From Bdellovibrionota bacterium (GTDB lineage: Bacteria; Bdellovibrionota; FAC87; UBA2466; JACKAF01): a stretch of 64,000 nt of DNA. Numbering within the stretch: position 1 is the stretch's first letter; every line of letters starts with the position of its first letter. A model generated the notes under the pieces. That model saw only the letters and a program-made list of their open reading frames with translations. It was not told the origin of the DNA and searched no databases. Location of the stretch: assembly GCA_041751875.1 (NCBI GenBank), contig JBGSIC010000032.1, positions 41,118 to 105,117 on the forward strand, in the 5' to 3' direction. The position numbers were made by a program, and so were the translations under genes. Positions 29,874 to 38,125 of the stretch are shown here, one piece after another.

Positions 29874-31202
29874 TTGAATTTATTTATTAAGTTTATATTT
29901 TGTGGCTTTCTTTTTTGCGTGCCCGCCTTTGGCCACGTCTGCAGGCTGCTCCTATTGGGGGCCTATTCCGCGGGGGCGGATTTGGGGCTGCGGACGACCG
30001 AGCAGGGGCTTGAGGCGGTACACGTTCATCCCCGCCCTGAGAAGATTTTGGAACCGTTCTATATGAGGTCGTGGAGGGGGGATACCTATTCCGCGCATTA
30101 TGAATTTTCTGGCAGGCAAGAGGACGCAGAAAATTTGATTCGAACCATTGCGCCCGATCATGTGTTGTTAGGATCGGGAGCGGGCGTCCAAGAATACCAG
30201 TACCTGGCGCAAGCCGCCCTTAATTTGGGTATTCCTCTTTTGGCGAACAATCCCGTCGTGAATCCTGCCCTGATAGACAAGGCGGAATTTTATCGTAGCG
30301 TAAAAGATCTTCCCGGAATTTTTATCCCCCCGTTTATTGCTTCAGAAGATCCTGCTGTGCTCGCCCAATGGGCGGAAACTCAAAGTGGCCCCTTGGTGCT
30401 AAAGCCCAGCGCCGGCGGAGGGACAGTCGGCGGACGGGTCGTGGATCCTTCCGAAGTGTTCGAAAGAGCGGGTGAACTTCTCGAGCGAAGTCACGGCATG
30501 ATCAAGTCGCATCGTATGATTCTGATGCCCTATTTGGGGGGAGAAGAATATGCGGTGAATATTATTTTCAGAAGGGGAGATCCTCTTGTGACAGGGGTTT
30601 GGTCTTATAAGAGAAAACGCCTCCCGGGCGCTCTTATCCGCTACGAAGCCGATTGGTTGATGGATCCCCATTCTCCTATTGCAACTCAACTCATTTCGGC
30701 TGCGACTGCCATCGCGCGGCACCAAGGCTTGAAGGTCGGTGCGCTTCACATTGAGTTTAAGATTTTACCGGATGGAAAAATTGTGCCCCTCGATCCCAAC
30801 CCGCGTTTACCAGGTGGCGGGCATGTGCCCATGGAAACTTTGGCGACGGGCCGCGATCCCAGAACACTCTACGTGGCGTCTTACACGGATCCTAATAAGC
30901 TCGATAAAGAACCCTTCTTATACACGCGCGAAAAATTTGCTGTGGGTGTCTTTCTCAGTACCGAGGGAAACAAACGCTACACGAGTGCCCCGCTGGCAGG
31001 AATAGAAAAGCGTGCGAAAGAACTCGGTGTGGAATTGGATTATAAGGCGGAGTACGAAGAAGACGCTGTAATGGTAAGGACCGTCGATGCGGATACCGTT
31101 GTGGGTTGGTTTCGGGTAGTGGGACCCTCAGAAGACAGTACTCGCGAGATCATGCGCCTGATTGAGCTCTCCAGAGACGCGGGTGAATTCGAGAAGGATT
31201 AG
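29874..31202 (+). CDS. ATP-grasp domain protein (L-amino acid ligase-like)
   Basis: DK, PLVLKPSAGGG, YLGGEEYAVN, GALHIEF and NPRLPGG. Confidence 0.8.
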   Translation: MNLFIKFIFCGFLFCVPAFGHVCRLLLLGAYSAGADLGLRTTEQGLEAVHVHPRPEKILEPFYMRSWRGDTYSAHYEFSGRQEDAENLIRTIAPDHVLLGSGAGVQEYQYLAQAALNLGIPLLANNPVVNPALIDKAEFYRSVKDLPGIFIPPFIASEDPAVLAQWAETQSGPLVLKPSAGGGTVGGRVVDPSEVFERAGELLERSHGMIKSHRMILMPYLGGEEYAVNIIFRRGDPLVTGVWSYKRKRLPGALIRYEADWLMDPHSPIATQLISAATAIARHQGLKVGALHIEFKILPDGKIVPLDPNPRLPGGGHVPMETLATGRDPRTLYVASYTDPNKLDKEPFLYTREKFAVGVFLSTEGNKRYTSAPLAGIEKRAKELGVELDYKAEYEEDAVMVRTVDADTVVGWFRVVGPSEDSTREIMRLIELSRDAGEFEKD

Positions 31203-31236
31203 CAGCGTTGTACGCGCGGAAGGATTTGCATACAAA
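31201..31236 (+). pseudogene. Orphan 3' tip homologous to the lipoprotein gene at 36266-36643
   Basis: 31 of 36 nt identical to 36587-36622 (SSVVRAEGFAYK vs SSVLYADGFAYK). Confidence 0.6.
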
Positions 31237-32313: not shown

Positions 32314-32423
32314 CATCGACCATGGCTTAAGAACCAGCAGCCTTGTCACTCTAACGAGATTCCTCGTGGAGAGGATTAAATGATGGTGAAATACACTGTC
32401 ATTAATCAAAACGAAGTCGAGAA

Positions 32424-32465
32424 TGGGCCCGCCGTGACTTGAACACGGAACCCCCAGATTAGAAA
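32424..32465 (-). repeat. Copy 1 of tRNA-Arg 3' half (att-like direct repeat)
   Basis: 42 of 42 identical to 36735-36776. Confidence 0.95.
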
Positions 32466-32827
32466 ACGACGTGGGCGCTACGCTGCCCGCGTCGGAGTTG
32501 ACGTAATCAAACAATATTAACCAGTTGGAGTGAGGCTTCTTTCGTCTGGGTGTCTGAATTGGGACTAAAACCGACCAGGGAATCGACCAAGAAGGGAAGT
32601 GGTGTTTCAGGACTCCAAGTCCACGGGTGACCTTCCGTGCTCCCATAGTTCAAGAAACATTTCCTCGAATCCATGGAACAACGAAGGGGTAGAGTCCTCA
32701 AAAACGGCTAGAGGGCCTTCGCTGCATCGCCGGTATATTCAAAGCATGTTGTCGTTTGCTCCGGTCTCAAGACTGATACATTTCTCAAATTCAAAACAGC
32801 AAAGAGCGTGACGGGTGCCTAAAGATC

Positions 32828-32843
32828 TGGCACTCCTTTTGCT
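32828..32843 (+). promoter_or_regulatory. Sigma-54 (-24/-12) promoter
   Basis: TGGCACTCCTTTTGCT, followed by SD aaggag before GTG 32886. Confidence 0.7.
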
Positions 32844-32885
32844 TTTTGATCCTATGTGGCCCCTAACGGGTCGAAGGAGTAGGCA

Positions 32886-34907
32886 GTGAAGAAAATATTG
32901 TTGCTTGGTGTGGTATCTCTTTTGGTCCTAAATGGTTGTGGTCAAACCCCCAACGAGGGAATCGGAAGTGGGGAAGAGATTGTCAAAGACAAAGGCTCTG
33001 ACTTTGAGCACATCGCTCTTCCGCCAGAAAAGCCCTACAAGTCTCTGGACTCTCTATTCAAGAACCCAGCCGAAGAAATTCTTCGTGCCTCAGATCGTGC
33101 TGCGGTTCGCTATAAGCTCCGGACACACGCTTCACCTTCAAAGCTTTACCACTATGAACTGAAAAAACTAATGGAGAACCTCTCTTCCGTGACCCTGGAA
33201 GATATCCTAAATATTACGGATGGATTTTACGTTTCTGGAGTAAGACACCGCGAATTGCGGGCTGAGCTCTCTAAACTATCTAATGAGAATCCGGAGCAAA
33301 TGAGACGGAAACTGACCATTGAACGAGACTTTGCCTCGGCGAGAGACCTAGCTCACCTCTGCAATGAGACGATCTTGCTTGGCCTCGAGAAACGGGCAGG
33401 GAAGGTATCGGATGACAGTTGGGCCCGTCTGGCAAGTGTCATTGTTCCCGGCGAGGGGAGCGAGGAAATTCTGCGCCAAATGATCGATGTTCCCAATATT
33501 GAAAGCGAAGAGTCTCTGAAAGTGGCGCTTGATCTGGCCATCGAAAAGAAAGCGGAGAAGCTTGCCGCAGAGCTTGCGGTGAGTCACTTCCAGAATCACA
33601 CTTCTCAAGGCAGAGAAGATGCTCGCGCTCTGTTGCGCCGCTTGAAGGGAGTCAGCCTCATGAAGGTGGCCGACAAAATAAACTTCCGTATTGAAGAGGA
33701 GCCCGTGAACTTCCAGAAAGAGCTTGTGGCAGCCGCGGAAGAGGATGACTATCAGGTAGTTGCCGAGCTCGGAGGACAGGCCCCCTTCCGGACCCTCGTG
33801 GAGAGAGCGGAGTGGGTGCAACCCCAGCGGCGTCAGGCCTACCTCATCCATATTGCCCTTCACTATGCCACTTTTGAAGATGCTGATCTGGGTGCGTTTA
33901 TGGATGATTTAAGTGAGCTCAATCGGGAACGATTTTTCACGAGCCCGTTTCATGTGAGCCTCTTTATAAAGCGTCTTTCCATTTCGTTGGATGACCTTAA
34001 GGAGAGGCTGGGGGCGCTTTCAGTCGACGCCCGATTCTTGTTGATGAAGGAGTTTGATGCGGAACGCACCGCCAGAGATATTGCCTATCCCGCATACACC
34101 GATTACTTTTTTGCTCAATTGCCGCTCGATAATAAACTCGCTGAGTTCGCGGCGCTGGCATTTAAGAATCAAAGATTCCCTATTTCAAATGAAAAACTAT
34201 TCGACCTAATTGCGACGAGTTCTTTGTCTGAAGAAGATAAAGCGGCGTATCTCAACGCGGATGAGAGATCAGAGATCTCGGTAAATGCAATCAGGAAAGT
34301 TTTGGCCAGTCTAACGCCTTCGAGCTATGAAAGGCTGCTCCAGGTTGTAACGACGAAGAATCTGGGCCCCATAACGGGTGACGAAGTGGAGGAGATTGCC
34401 AACATTGTGAAAGAAACCAGACCTACCTTGGCTAAAACTTGGTATCTCGTGGCTGTGCCTAAAGCTAGAAAAGGGACACTAGAGATGTCCACGATTACCG
34501 CTTTCATTGGCAATCACTGGGAGAAGCGGAGAGAACGCGCCGACTCCATTTATTTTCTCAATCTCTATGGCAACGTACCCAAGGTGGAGTTCTTCTTGGC
34601 GGCAGCGAATGCGATCGGATGGGACCGCACCGATAGCGGCGTAGAGTATTTGTACACCAATGCATCTCAATTAGATGAAGACTCCATTAGTTTGGATGAG
34701 CTCAGAAAATACATCGGAACTTTCATGCGGCATGCTCTTTACGGTGAGCACAGGCGTGCGAATGAGGTGGCCGCGACGTGCTACGAGGCACTCCATACCA
34801 GCGCTCAGACCCAGGAGAGTATCGATGCGATTGCGGAGATGCTGAAAACATCTGTGGGCGAAAATGCCCGCTTCCTGGAATTGGTCGCCAAGATAGAGCC
34901 TCGTTGA
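32886..34907 (+). CDS. Large hypothetical lipoprotein (helical-looking)
   Basis: MKKILLLGVVSLLVLNGC lipobox; 673-aa ORF. Confidence 0.75.
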   Translation: MKKILLLGVVSLLVLNGCGQTPNEGIGSGEEIVKDKGSDFEHIALPPEKPYKSLDSLFKNPAEEILRASDRAAVRYKLRTHASPSKLYHYELKKLMENLSSVTLEDILNITDGFYVSGVRHRELRAELSKLSNENPEQMRRKLTIERDFASARDLAHLCNETILLGLEKRAGKVSDDSWARLASVIVPGEGSEEILRQMIDVPNIESEESLKVALDLAIEKKAEKLAAELAVSHFQNHTSQGREDARALLRRLKGVSLMKVADKINFRIEEEPVNFQKELVAAAEEDDYQVVAELGGQAPFRTLVERAEWVQPQRRQAYLIHIALHYATFEDADLGAFMDDLSELNRERFFTSPFHVSLFIKRLSISLDDLKERLGALSVDARFLLMKEFDAERTARDIAYPAYTDYFFAQLPLDNKLAEFAALAFKNQRFPISNEKLFDLIATSSLSEEDKAAYLNADERSEISVNAIRKVLASLTPSSYERLLQVVTTKNLGPITGDEVEEIANIVKETRPTLAKTWYLVAVPKARKGTLEMSTITAFIGNHWEKRRERADSIYFLNLYGNVPKVEFFLAAANAIGWDRTDSGVEYLYTNASQLDEDSISLDELRKYIGTFMRHALYGEHRRANEVAATCYEALHTSAQTQESIDAIAEMLKTSVGENARFLELVAKIEPR

Positions 34908-34944
34908 ACTGCTTCCTTCTGTGTGTATCGAGAAGCCGTCGCAA

Positions 34945-34980
34945 CCCCGCTGAAATGCTCGGTAACTAACCGAATATCGA
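34945..34980. repeat. 36-bp non-tRNA direct repeat (second copy at 35915-35950)
   Basis: CCCCGCTGAAATGCTCGGTAACTAACCGAATATCGA is identical in both copies and contains the inverted repeat TCGGT-AACTA-ACCGA. Confidence 0.9.
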
Positions 34981-34994
34981 AGCGAAGCGGAGAT

Positions 34995-35036
34995 TGGGCC
35001 CGCCGTGACTTGAACACGGAGCCCCCAGGTTAGAAA
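34995..35036 (-). repeat. Copy 2 of tRNA-Arg 3' half
   Basis: 40 of 42 identical to 36735-36776. Confidence 0.95.
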
Positions 35037-35965
35037 CGACTCGGAGGTCGCCCTCCTAGGCGCGGTTCAGGTCTACATAGACCATCTAGTGGTTTTAGGC
35101 TTTTCAATTTGCGGCGACGTATTCGGCATCAATGACTAGACTCACCTTACGATTCTCCATATTTCCGGAAACATAAAGACCGTAAGTAGTCTCGGTTTTT
35201 CGGTAGAAGATAGCTTCGAGCCCGGCTTCCCTAGTTTCTTGGAGGGTTTTTCTCAGGCTTCCAGCGCGGTTGTTAGTGTCCCAGGAGAATTTATTTCTGT
35301 CGCGTGTTTGTTCGCCATTTAACTCAAACGTAGCCTCTAGCCCTCTCGATGATTTCCCTTCCTTTCCCTCCAACTGTAAAGCGATTTCCATTTTCCCAGA
35401 TATATATCCTTTCGGAAGTTGGTTCATATCGGTACAAAGGAAACGCTGTCTTACTTCGGGGTTCGCGAGATCAGAGGTTGATGAGATGACTGATTCCACT
35501 TGCGCGACACCAGTTAGGGTTTTTCCATCTTTATCAAGAGAAACTCTTTGTTCCCAGCGAACGCTTCTCAAGCGCAGCTTAGCGGTATCGGGTAAGTCGC
35601 TTACAAAAATTTCCGTTGAACGAAAGTCCTGCGGAGTAGTGGTTAAAGGCGAGCATTTGCTGTTCGCTCGATTTCCAGCGCCATCACCTTGTATTTCGGT
35701 GTTTTTGTCTCCGCAGCCTGAAAAGGCGAAAAGGGCCATCGCTAGAACGACTTTCTTAGTAGGCATAGTGAGTCTCCTGTGCAGTTCAGATAGGCCTTTT
35801 CTTTGAACTATGCAAGCCATAGTGCAAAGCTGTGGCAACACGCCAGGTCGCGAGTTCAATCAACTTGAGAGTCGGACATGAAATCGACCACGCGGCTAAA
35901 AAGAAGGAGGGAAGCCCCGCTGAAATGCTCGGTAACTAACCGAATATCGAGGAAAAAGCTGAGAT
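35037..35965. mobile_element. Cassette B: integrase-less mini-island
   Basis: Bounded by 42-bp repeats; carries one lipoprotein gene on the minus strand. Confidence 0.6.
35104..35766 (-). CDS. Hypothetical lipoprotein
   Basis: SD aggag and MPTKKVVLAMALFAFSGC lipobox. Confidence 0.75.
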   Translation of the reverse strand: MPTKKVVLAMALFAFSGCGDKNTEIQGDGAGNRANSKCSPLTTTPQDFRSTEIFVSDLPDTAKLRLRSVRWEQRVSLDKDGKTLTGVAQVESVISSTSDLANPEVRQRFLCTDMNQLPKGYISGKMEIALQLEGKEGKSSRGLEATFELNGEQTRDRNKFSWDTNNRAGSLRKTLQETREAGLEAIFYRKTETTYGLYVSGNMENRKVSLVIDAEYVAAN

Positions 35966-36007
35966 TGGGCCCGCCGTGACTTGAACACGGAACCCCCAGA
36001 TTAGAAA
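35966..36007 (-). repeat. Copy 3 of tRNA-Arg 3' half
   Basis: 42 of 42 identical to 36735-36776. Confidence 0.95.
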
Positions 36008-36734
36008 ACGACTCGGGCGCTTCGCCGCCCTCGTCGTAGATCAGGTAAGGCGCAGCGCCTTTTCACTAACACGTCGAAATGCAAAAGGCCTGACAGGCGG
36101 CAATTTGGCCGGCGATTGCACGCAGGAGCGCTTTCGTCTCCCGTAAACGTCTTTCGATTCCGGCGCTAAAAAGCACAGAGTTGGAGCGAGATTCGGTGAT
36201 GTCCACAAAAGTCCCACATTTAGTATTTTTCCACTATATTGATAGGCGAGAAAGGAGGGAAGGCTATGTATCGTTTTCTCATCGCTCAATTTCACCTGGT
36301 GGCCATTGTGGTGCTCTTTGGGTGTGCTCATTCCCCCGGTGGTTTTTTAGTGCAGCGAACCCAAAATTCTTACAGCATCTTCGTGGGGGGGGCCGTTAAG
36401 GATAAAGAAAATTCATTTTTTGCTGGCGCATATAACATCTGTCTCGACAAGCATCAGAGCGGATTTAAAGTTCAGAGTCGGACTTCTGATCAGTATGGTT
36501 CCATTGACGCAACAGTAGTGTGCGAAGGGAATCCGGATAAATTTCTGGCGAGCAAATACGCAAATCGAAAAATAAAGCTCGAGAGAAGCAGCGTTTTATA
36601 CGCGGATGGCTTTGCATACAAAGTCATCGACACAAGGAATTGAAGAGATTCGTGATGCCGTGATTTATTGCAGTTCGGGGAGAAATTGGAGAGCGACTAT
36701 TTACTATCGGGCTGAAGCAAGGGTTTGATGAAAA
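36008..36734. mobile_element. Cassette A: integrase-less mini-island adjacent to the tRNA
   Basis: Lies between repeat copy 3 and the tRNA 3' end; carries one lipoprotein gene. Confidence 0.6.
36266..36643 (+). CDS. Small hypothetical lipoprotein
   Basis: SD aggagg and MYRFLIAQFHLVAIVVLFGC lipobox. Confidence 0.7.
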   Translation: MYRFLIAQFHLVAIVVLFGCAHSPGGFLVQRTQNSYSIFVGGAVKDKENSFFAGAYNICLDKHQSGFKVQSRTSDQYGSIDATVVCEGNPDKFLASKYANRKIKLERSSVLYADGFAYKVIDTRN

Positions 36735-36808
36735 TGGGCCCGCCGTGACTTGAACACGGAACCCCCAGATTAGAAATCTGGTGCTCTATCCGGTTGAGCT
36801 ACGGGCCC
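36735..36808 (-). tRNA. tRNA-Arg (anticodon UCU), CCA not encoded
   Basis: GGGCCCG TA GCTC AACCGGATA GAGC A CCAGA TTTCTAA TCTGG GGGTT CCGTG TTCAAGT CACGG CGGGCCC A folds as a full cloverleaf. Confidence 0.97.
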
Positions 36809-36871: not shown

Positions 36872-38125
36872 CTAGGCAGGAAGCCTAAAGGAAAACTTAG
36901 AACCTTGGCCTGGAACAGACTCGGCCCATATCGTGCCGTTATGTTGCTCAAGGACCCGTTTGCAAATGGCTAAGCCCATGCCCGTGCCGGGGTACTTTTC
37001 TTCGCCGGTGTGAAGGCGCTTAAACACCATGAAAATCTGATCGTGGTACTCGGCTTCAAACCCAATGCCGTTGTCGGACACCGTAAATACCCAGCTGCCG
37101 TCCTCTTTGGTTGCCGATATTTGTATTTGTAAGGGCACCCCTTCCTGACGGAACTTGATGGCGTTGGCGATGAGGTTTTGGAAAAGCTGTGTGATCTGAG
37201 CAGGGACGACGGCTACTTTAGCCTCATTCTTCTTAAACGTAGGGGTAATCTCCGCTCCGCTTTCCGCAATGGAAAGAGAGAGGTTTTCCAGGGCGCGGTC
37301 CAAACACGTTCTGATGCAGCTTTCTTCCACAACCCCTCGGTTATCCAAACGCGCATAGTTACCTAAGCTTTCAATCAAGCGGGTCATCCGGTTGGTGCCG
37401 GTGAGGATGTGACCGATGTAACCTCGTTCTTCGTCGTCCAGCCTCTCCTTTAATTTGTCCTGCAACAAATCGCTGAATAGCGAGATGGTACGGAGAGGCT
37501 CACGTAAATCGTGAGAAGCAATGTGAGTGAAAGTCTCTAGATCTTGTCGCCTGGCAATTTCCTCCTCGGTGCGTGCTTTTTGAGCGATGAGCGAGAGGTT
37601 TGCTTTCTCGAGTTCTTGGTTTTTTTTCTCAAGTTCCTTGGGGCTTCTTAGACTAAGCGCCTGTGGAATCAGCGGAAAAAGCATAATCGCCGTTAAAACA
37701 GAAATGGAAGCCGTAATAAACTTCACCACTCCGTCTGCCCGGTAGACGGGTATCCAAAGAGTTACGATGTTCATGATGTGGGTGGTTCCACACCAGAAAA
37801 TAAATCCCGCAAAAAGAGCGAATATCCAAGGGTAAGGAAGATCCTTTTTGTTTTTTCGGAAGTACAGAAGCATGAGCGGAATGGAAAAGTAAGCCAGCGC
37901 AATCAGGGCGTCGGAGATAACGTGCAGCCAAACGATTTCCCCACGCCAAAAAAAGCAGTGTCCGTGCGGCATGAAGTCCGCCTTAAACAGCCTTGAAAAA
38001 AAGCCCCCTACAGACTCCTGTTTGTTTAGGTCAAACGCCTGACCGTGGTCATGATCATGACCCTGGGCCTGAAGAAGGGCAGGAAGGCCCAAGAAAAGGG
38101 CTGTTAACGTCCGACGCATAAACAA
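36872..38125 (-). CDS. Sensor histidine kinase with ethylene-receptor-like transmembrane domain
   Basis: SDALIALAYFSIP...FIFWCGTTH; H-box ASHDLREPL; N, G1 and G2 boxes (NLIANAIKF, DNGIG, GTGMGLAIC). Confidence 0.9.
   Translation of the reverse strand: MFMRRTLTALFLGLPALLQAQGHDHDHGQAFDLNKQESVGGFFSRLFKADFMPHGHCFFWRGEIVWLHVISDALIALAYFSIPLMLLYFRKNKKDLPYPWIFALFAGFIFWCGTTHIMNIVTLWIPVYRADGVVKFITASISVLTAIMLFPLIPQALSLRSPKELEKKNQELEKANLSLIAQKARTEEEIARRQDLETFTHIASHDLREPLRTISLFSDLLQDKLKERLDDEERGYIGHILTGTNRMTRLIESLGNYARLDNRGVVEESCIRTCLDRALENLSLSIAESGAEITPTFKKNEAKVAVVPAQITQLFQNLIANAIKFRQEGVPLQIQISATKEDGSWVFTVSDNGIGFEAEYHDQIFMVFKRLHTGEEKYPGTGMGLAICKRVLEQHNGTIWAESVPGQGSKFSFRLPA

Follow-up and report, generated by a model that had tools for sequence, protein, structure and literature searches.

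We analyzed a 64,000-nucleotide (nt) stretch of DNA from a member of the Bdellovibrionota (hereafter the window), which spans positions 41118-105117 of contig C32 in a 3.42-Mb assembly of 34 contigs that is 96.9% complete. The window contains a tRNA-Arg(UCU) gene and, downstream of it, an array of three displaced copies of the 3' part of this gene, which delimit three small units that each hold one gene for a predicted lipoprotein (lipoA, lipoB and lipoC). The tRNA gene was the only one detected in the window by ARAGORN (as tRNA-Arg(tct), 36735-36808, minus strand). The repeated segment is 42 nt long, starting with the first anticodon-loop base and ending with the discriminator base, and the block of identity begins at TTTCTAA, which is the anticodon loop of tRNA-Arg(UCU). 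A first-pass annotation, made from the letters of the window, had described three such copies in direct orientation with 0, 2 and 0 mismatches; our pattern search recovered exactly these, all downstream of the tRNA gene, and returned no match of any kind in 100 shuffled sequences (chance expectation, none). The copies are spaced by 2571, 971 and 769 bp, which bears out the unit sizes given in that annotation. Read in the direction of the tRNA, the order at the locus is tRNA, unit 1, core copy c1, unit 2, c2, unit 3, c3, native flank and SDR gene, with the following coordinates.

36735..36808, minus strand: tRNA-Arg(UCU) gene, found by ARAGORN and pattern search; the 3' 42 nt of the gene (36735-36776) make up the proximal repeat copy
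36008..36734, minus strand: body of unit 1 (period 769 bp), with the P'-side flank (36685-36734), lipoA and the P arm
35966..36007, minus strand: core copy c1, displaced tRNA 3' part, 42/42 identical (pattern search)
35037..35965, minus strand: body of unit 2 (period 971 bp), with the P' arm, lipoB and the P arm
34995..35036, minus strand: core copy c2, 40/42 identical to the tRNA 3' part (pattern search)
32466..34994, minus strand: body of unit 3 (period 2571 bp), with the P' arm (34945-34994), lipoC and the P arm (32466-32506)
32424..32465, minus strand: core copy c3, 42/42 identical, followed by native flank (32314-32423)

One of the two mismatches in c2 would disrupt the closing base pair of the anticodon stem. 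No further degenerate copies of the repeat (at least 24 of 42 positions) were found in the window. Nor is the 42-mer scattered through the genome, a possibility that the first-pass annotation had raised: a 37-nt version of the repeat has exactly four matches in the assembly, all of them at the tRNA-Arg locus. The GC content of the units (0.48-0.50) is close to that of the genome (0.50).

Each unit contains one open reading frame (ORF), with no space for a second gene and no gene fragments. The three genes, which we call the cargo, are oriented +, - and +, each has upstream DNA of its own (148-379 nt), and each is preceded by an AGGAG-type ribosome-binding site 7-8 nt upstream of the ORF.

36266..36643, plus strand: lipoA, 125 amino acids (aa), predicted lipoprotein with lipobox LFGC, no known family
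35104..35766, minus strand: lipoB, 220 aa from the ATG, predicted lipoprotein with lipobox FSGC (...AFSGC), probably beta-rich
32886..34907, plus strand: lipoC, 673 aa, predicted all-alpha lipoprotein with LNGC (...VLNGC)

The prediction that all three are lipoproteins is based on a permissive PROSITE-like regular expression for the lipobox, which was picked after the genes had been seen, was widened to permit N at position -2, and is passed by 151 (5%) of the genome's 3003 ORFs with a length of 100 aa or more. The PROSITE lipobox rule bars N at -2, and the LNGC of lipoC is thus non-canonical. When each cargo protein was searched against the genome with tblastn, only its own gene was matched, from which we conclude that the three proteins are mutually unrelated. 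The description of one convincing gene per unit, coding for unrelated predicted lipoproteins in mixed orientation, therefore stood. We found no Pfam, NCBIfam or PHROG family and no credible PADLOC family for any of the three, and, in a word-indexed search for homologues among 5.8 billion proteins, each found itself alone. A full HMMER search detected 13 weak relatives of residues 45-255 of lipoC, and the 10 of these that were scanned had no convincing Pfam family. A relationship of lipoC to Csx1 (E = 8e-5 over 90 residues) was judged to be a chance match. The structural model of lipoC is all-helical, with a predicted local distance difference test score (pLDDT) of 65 overall and of ~90 for residues 45-285, and a Foldseek comparison of this model with the PDB returned generic helical repeats alone (E > 0.001, TM score < 0.25); the model of lipoB was unusable (pLDDT 45.9). 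Language-model neighbors, which serve as leads only, were YceI-like proteins for lipoB (ESM Atlas) and small lipoproteins for lipoA. As judged from the sequence, the cargo looks like one expressed orphan lipoprotein gene per unit; that these lipoproteins serve cell-surface variation or phage exclusion is a guess. Outside the array, right after the stop codon of an ATP-grasp ORF, we note a segment (31201-31236) that is identical at 31 of 36 positions to the 3' coding end of lipoA (36587-36622), and which could represent the remains of an earlier lipoA-like gene or a chance match (BLAST E = 3e-4 against the genome).

Comparison of the DNA adjoining the core copies revealed two kinds of arm that had not been described in the first-pass annotation, namely an arm of ~41 nt common to all three copies (the P arm) and a 50-nt arm common to units 2 and 3 (the P' arm).

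36008..36048, minus strand: P arm of unit 1, with a GC-rich hairpin adjoining TTTTCT of the core; terminator-like in the tRNA direction
35037..35077, minus strand: P arm of unit 2, whose hairpin (GGAGG-GCGA-CCTCC) has diverged; it lies 26 nt past the lipoB stop codon
32466..32506, minus strand: P arm of unit 3, matching the unit 1 P arm at 32 of 41 nt
35916..35965, minus strand: P' arm of unit 2, matching the unit 3 P' arm at 45 of 50 nt
34945..34994, minus strand: P' arm of unit 3, matching the unit 2 P' arm at 45 of 50 nt

The P arm precedes each partial copy and is unlike the 5' half of the tRNA, and its identity between units is 32/41 (units 1 and 3), 29/41 (units 1 and 2) and 25/41 (units 2 and 3). 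The agreement between the two P' arms (45/50) compares with a mean of 25.3 and a maximum of 32 for random 50-mers (300 trials), and includes an exact block of 36 nt (35915-35950 and 34945-34980), at the inner edge of which the similarity of units 2 and 3 ends abruptly and at the same nucleotide. Measured against the same random expectation, the flank after c3 bears a weak likeness to the P' arm (32-34/50), and the flank after the tRNA itself, which is the P' side of unit 1, bears none (23-27/50). A simple terminator scan called one of the three P-arm hairpins a terminator. The folding energies of the hairpins did not differ from those of shuffled controls (z = -0.7 to -1.5), and we therefore rejected the idea that they are folded sites of the attC type. 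We also dropped the idea that the 36-nt block is a relic of the 3' end of an integrase gene; its likeness to the stop-codon context of the integrase of a related genome, G035 (TTAGTTAAC), is too short. The pattern of the junction between P arm and core had 0 matches in the genome, viral and metagenome contig collections.

We found no match to PF00589 or PF00239 on contig C32, which agrees with the earlier remark that no integrase is recognizable; transposases, which that remark also covered, were not searched for. The first-pass annotation had further proposed a genome-wide search for a tyrosine integrase linked to the repeated core, and this returned three core Xer-type recombinases only, none of which adjoins a tRNA gene. 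Two of these PF00589 proteins are of XerC/D size (contigs C15 and C29), and the third, which is Xer-like, has 408 aa and is extended at its N terminus by ~100 aa (C31:16772-17995; L007:871-2097). The genome of the window (G000) was compared with others of its order (38 genomes including G000), and the third Xer-like recombinase proved to be single-copy in 34 of the 38 and in all 28 of high quality, at 57-76% identity. This indicates that it is a vertically inherited core gene and not the integrase of an element. A search for related loci with this protein gave only distant matches in metagenome-assembled genomes (MAGs). An Arm-DNA-bind_3 domain was not found in the genome. A tblastn search of the array with the integrase of G035 yielded only noise (best E = 0.68), and, with long ORFs drawn from the loci around 11 integrase matches in the order, tblastn matched the XerC/D-type genes of C15 and C29 alone and nothing in the array. 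Contig C18 opens with a large serine recombinase (C18:1278-1730; open frame, 670 aa), which may mark a mobile element that was cut by the assembly.

The same tRNA site is occupied in relatives. A 19-nt motif of the anticodon arm occurs at least twice in 10 of the 38 genomes of the order (G000, G011, G015, G019, G020, G031, G032, G033, G035 and G036, with one of the two matches in G036 doubtful). The three nearest genomes, which belong to the same family and another genus, have one copy each and are too distant for a comparison of synteny (kinase at most 38% identical, ATP-grasp protein 27%). We inspected the copies by sequence in five relatives (G019, G015, G033, G032 and G035), and all of them begin at TTTCTAA. 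Downstream of the tRNA, the near-complete genome G019 has three partial copies, spaced by 14.6, 2.8 and 8.1 kb (C4:2632654-2658166); G015 and G033 have one partial copy each, 2.7 and 3.2 kb off, respectively; and in G032 and G035 the copies are on other contigs. P arms are homologous within a genome (copies 3 and 4 of G019; the partial copies of G032, L010/L012), but not between genomes, and the last two P arms of G019 are ~90% identical over 60 nt. The delimited units of G019, G015 and G033 have no PF00589 match, and in our reading of the ORF sequences they hold ordinary island cargo, namely genes for an efflux pump and for two-component proteins, a secreted protein together with a HigBA-like pair, and a membrane protein together with an ATPase. 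One unit of G019 also has an ORF that, by eye, resembles a transposase of the Tn5/IS4 type. The sole integrase seen at the site in the inspected genomes is a 419-aa protein of G035, the gene of which ends 27 nt away from the tRNA 3' end, and G010 has a C-terminal remnant that is 53% identical to it. Among the 150 of 226 PF00589 matches in the order that were listed, that of G035 (contig C297) was the only one on a contig with the tRNA-Arg motif. The core itself is specific to the lineage: a 35-nt tRNA 3' part, with up to two mismatches allowed, occurred only in the window's genome among 401 genomes of the phylum searched, and had 0 matches in metagenome contigs and 0 in viral contigs. No second genome or metagenome contig with these arms, cores or genes was found.

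The stretch is present in four sequencing runs (X1-X4) of one study, labeled as hot-spring and biofilm metagenomes. The contigs derived from these runs (Logan, k=31) are of low depth (3-9x) and break at every repeat, and rare variants are dropped from them. Long pieces of all three units were recovered without differences in X1-X3, and X4 gave scattered pieces of 151 nt only. The first-pass annotation had suggested a search for excision circles and empty sites; no alternative joint, variant letter, indel, circle or empty site is reported in these contigs, which can neither show nor exclude rare excision. In X1, the depth of the flanks is 7.6 and 7.41 and that of the units 9.3, 8.1, 8.4, 8.36 and 6.93, and a single contig (34945-35944) starts at the P' arm of unit 3 and continues through c2 and the entire unit 2 as far as the following P' arm. 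The equal depth of units and flanks argues against a chain of strain variants and fits one genome that has all three units.

We compared the array with known systems. Cis-mobilizable elements (CIMEs) are, as described in PMC5704250, elements flanked by attL and attR attachment (att) sites and lacking integration and transfer genes, which arise by site-specific integration beside a resident element and accrete tandemly at 3' ends of tRNA genes among streptococcal ICEs (integrative conjugative elements) and IMEs (integrative mobilizable elements). The units studied here likewise form a tandem row behind a tRNA gene, at its 3' end, have no integration or transfer genes and are flanked by att-type sites, each being bounded by cores with a P arm on one side and a P' arm or P'-side flank on the other. 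On the reading preferred below, they too would have arisen by site-specific insertion next to an element already in place. Integration genes are absent from the units, and no remnant indicates that they were formerly present. Unlike CIMEs, the units measure 0.77-2.6 kb and hold a single gene, they have no decayed ICE or IME genes, and the genome contains no ICE or IME partner; further, unlike the streptococcal hosts of CIMEs, the host here is an uncultured hot-spring lineage. For the islands catalogued by Islander, PMC4383910 names the anticodon loop as one of three crossover subsites (together with the T loop and the T/acceptor junction), and states that an integrase is required in every member of an array and that arrays of three or more are rare (4 compared with 3919 islands). 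The locus resembles these islands in its intact tRNA gene (tDNA) with three cognate displaced 3' fragments in direct orientation, in its tandem arrangement and in crossover at the anticodon loop, the crossover point being deduced from the block of identity. Unlike these islands, no array member has an integrase, as PF00589 and PF00239 are absent from C32 and the tblastn search of the array was negative. Tycheposons of Prochlorococcus, as described in 10.1101/2020.12.28.424599, encode a recombinase of the tyrosine (rarely serine) type and, in most cases, a replication module, and integrate successively at one tRNA gene, so that only partial tRNA copies lie between them and older elements end up farther out; the islands of Prochlorococcus are dotted with partial tRNAs and degenerate remnants. 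The tandem units of the window are, as in tycheposon arrays, parted only by partial tRNA copies, but, unlike tycheposons, they contain no recombinase, replication module or integrase fragment, and each has one ORF without a known family.

The first-pass annotation had likened the array to an integron. Like an integron, the array is an ordered row of one-gene units, each of which ends in a recombination site and has no recombinase within it. Integron-like behavior could not be upheld on any of the integron features that were examined, however: there is no adjacent integrase, no intI, attI, Pc or attC-type site, and no common promoter side, and the cargo genes have upstream regions of their own and mixed orientation. 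A promoter scan called one site, compared with 4.2 expected. Repeat sites made of tRNA fragments are typical of heterobivalent tyrosine integrases, and are unlike the sites of integrons. Mobile insertion cassettes and elements of the miniature inverted-repeat transposable element (MITE) type are non-autonomous, have ends that are served in trans, and sometimes carry one passenger gene; they depend on transposases and inverted repeats. The units resemble them in being minimal and non-autonomous with one passenger gene, and are unlike them in their att-type ends and their tRNA site. Integrase-less, att-flanked tandem accretion is thus already described, for CIMEs (PMC5704250) and for degenerate tycheposon arrays (10.1101/2020.12.28.424599), and both the mechanism and the concept are known. 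Because these descriptions of CIME and Prochlorococcus arrays fit the locus, we file it as an unusually small CIME-like array; what is unusual are the extreme miniaturization, the one-gene, all-lipoprotein content and the mini-insertions, described below, that occur across the genome.

The position of the block of identity, the direct orientation of the copies, the element-type arms and the integrase of a relative together constitute the signature of a tyrosine integrase acting at the anticodon-loop subsite (PMC4383910). We consider it probable that the array was formed by tandem accretion of CIME-like islets, now fixed and devoid of integrase, through an anticodon-loop tyrosine integrase that is absent from the assembly. 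The units are regarded as CIME-like because no unit contains an integrase and the assembly has none of that type. In the course of events that we infer, each unit would once have been a circle, the attP of which consisted of the hairpin P arm, the TTTCTAA overlap with a replacement for the 42 nt of the tRNA, and the P' arm. The integrase would have recombined attP with the tRNA gene, the element supplying a new 3' part and the old part moving to the far end, and three successive insertions would have produced the order tRNA-unit1-c1-unit2-c2-unit3-c3. If every insertion took place at the intact tRNA, as we assume, unit 3 would be the oldest and unit 1 the newest, c3 would be the native 3' part, the 3' 42 nt of the current tRNA would have been supplied by unit 1, and c2 would be the core brought by unit 3; the cores from units 2 and 1 would have been identical to the native core. 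Since the core is absent from the 400 other phylum genomes sampled, the elements would have circulated within the lineage. The units may be elements that were stripped of their recombination genes, or satellites that were always dependent on a helper, and their position is probably fixed as long as no helper element of the same specificity enters.

Several observations weigh against this account. No trace of a decayed integrase was detected by tblastn in or near the array, and each of the compact units consists of arms, an upstream region and one intact gene, free of gene fragments, an outcome that random deletion is not expected to yield three times. The common breakpoint of units 2 and 3 fits a modular design of arm plus cargo better than it fits two deletions. 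That all three cargo genes encode predicted lipoproteins, compared with a background of 5%, points to selection or to a specialized family of elements. Further, three exact cores and a lineage-specific core suggest recent movement and an integrase that worked recently, and the helper element could be unbinned, in view of the completeness of the assembly (96.9%) and its 34 contigs.

Small duplications also occur at other tRNA genes of G000. Three of them, tRNA-His, tRNA-Val(tac) and tRNA-Pro(cgg), have their own 3' end repeated exactly over 20-22 nt at a distance of 74-108 nt downstream.

C23:16495-16667, outside the window: mini-insertion at tRNA-His
C29:50300-50473, outside the window: mini-insertion at tRNA-Val(tac)
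C33:34207-34409, outside the window: mini-insertion at tRNA-Pro(cgg)

The spacers of these three have two boxes in common, GTCT(C/T)GCTC and TGCTCGC(G/A)AGG, the latter of which abuts the copy. From their sequences, they look like att scars of the T-loop subsite or "empty" miniature elements, and could also be deletion scars. At tRNA-Leu(taa) (C32:120752-120881 and C10:1-152), a 45-nt copy of positions 41-85 lies 57 nt downstream; here the end of C32 overlaps the start of C10, and the two contigs are therefore adjacent. At tRNA-Pro(tgg) (C4:170460-170677), a 22-nt copy of the 3' end lies 121 nt downstream. At tRNA-Gly(gcc) (C13:414688-414871), a 43-nt duplication, composed of 23 nt of upstream flank and the first 20 nt of the tRNA, lies 107 nt upstream, and thus, unlike the others, on the 5' side. 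Mini-insertions next to a tRNA were not found in the other 37 genomes of the order, and a search of those genomes for TGCTCGCRAGG with the T-loop motif gave three matches with one mismatch, none near a tRNA, which we ascribe to chance.

The units might alternatively be active cassettes, each consisting of an attP of ~130 nt and one gene, which are cut out, swapped and put back at the tRNA by an integrase encoded elsewhere, either that of a helper element or, conceivably, the third Xer-like recombinase that occurs throughout the order; the tRNA would then serve as an integron-like platform on which genes for surface lipoproteins are captured. Cassettes of this kind would account for units that are compact, sharply bounded at their arms and equipped with a single intact gene, for a cargo made up of predicted lipoproteins only against a background of ~5%, and for a lineage-specific core that is exact in three of its four copies. 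In addition, at least five other tRNA genes have non-coding insertions (57-121 nt), three of them with a common P-arm motif, which resemble "empty" units, and arrays without a PF00589 match recur in the order. Nonetheless, we think such cassettes unlikely, because no suitable integrase is encoded in the assembly, the contigs of the four runs (3-9x, one study) show no circle, empty site or alternative junction, and no variation in cassette content appeared, given that no second genome or metagenome contig has these arms, cores and genes; moreover, the genes are in mixed orientation without a common promoter, and the arm hairpins fold no better than shuffled controls (z = -0.7 to -1.5). The view of the first-pass annotation that minimal cassettes are stacked at a tRNA att site is borne out for the att-type duplications, the arms and the tiny integrase-less one-gene units, and integration at this tRNA recurs across the order, but no mobility was seen. 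It is because we found no evidence of movement and no helper that we rate fixed islets as probable and mobilization in trans as unlikely. A broader proposal is that the lineage hosts a family of miniature integrase-less att elements, inserted at tRNA genes by a helper and ranging from "empty" insertions to one-gene cassettes of 0.8-2.6 kb, which we regard as unlikely. If it were true, the insertions of 57-121 nt at tRNA-His, -Val, -Pro (two) and -Leu would belong with the tRNA-Arg cassettes, the tRNA would be an integron-like site for the capture and display of orphan surface lipoprotein genes, and the family would be to integrases what MITEs and mobile insertion cassettes are to transposases.

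Two further explanations do without accretion by an integrase. Ordinary chromosomal genes could have come to lie between repeats produced by local duplication, slippage or homologous recombination, as the absence of an integrase and the equality of unit GC (0.48-0.50) and genome GC (0.50) would allow. However, the contents of the units are unrelated and are therefore not duplications, the arms of different units are homologous, the repeat boundary falls at the anticodon loop both here and in every copy inspected in five relatives, and an integrase is found at the same site in G035, so that we attach very little probability to this origin. Of similarly low probability is an assembly artifact in which three strains with one unit each were chained through the repeat of 42-47 nt. 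The genome is derived from a metagenome, and the k=31 contigs, which break at each repeat, do not confirm the order of the units. But variants of that kind would show about one-third of the depth of the flanks, and the units match the flanks in depth in X1, and approximately in X2 and X3 as well; each core lies between a different pair of arms, and native flank is found at c3 only; the X1 contig 34945-35944 links a P' arm, c2 and the whole of unit 2; and the repeats are shorter than ordinary reads. The possibility of misassembly raised in the first-pass annotation is thus countered by the depth in X1, which fits a single genome, with the order of the units left unconfirmed by the short-k-mer contigs.

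If the array consists of stripped-down islets, which we hold to be the probable case, it represents a clean and unusually small instance of the decay of tRNA-linked islands to att sites and one gene. Further, tRNA-Arg(UCU) is a hot spot across this uncultured order, where the arrays in the genomes examined are mostly without an integrase. Should the units instead be mobilized in trans, they would be, to our knowledge, the smallest integrase-dependent gene cassettes, and would offer a route by which single surface-protein genes are shuffled without an integron. The three lipoproteins are orphans among 5.8 billion proteins, and thus add no functional insight yet. Next to the array, the gene adjoining tRNA-Arg(UCU) (36872-38125, minus strand) codes for a histidine kinase whose N-terminal domain resembles that of ethylene receptors (ETR1_N, E = 2.4e-39).

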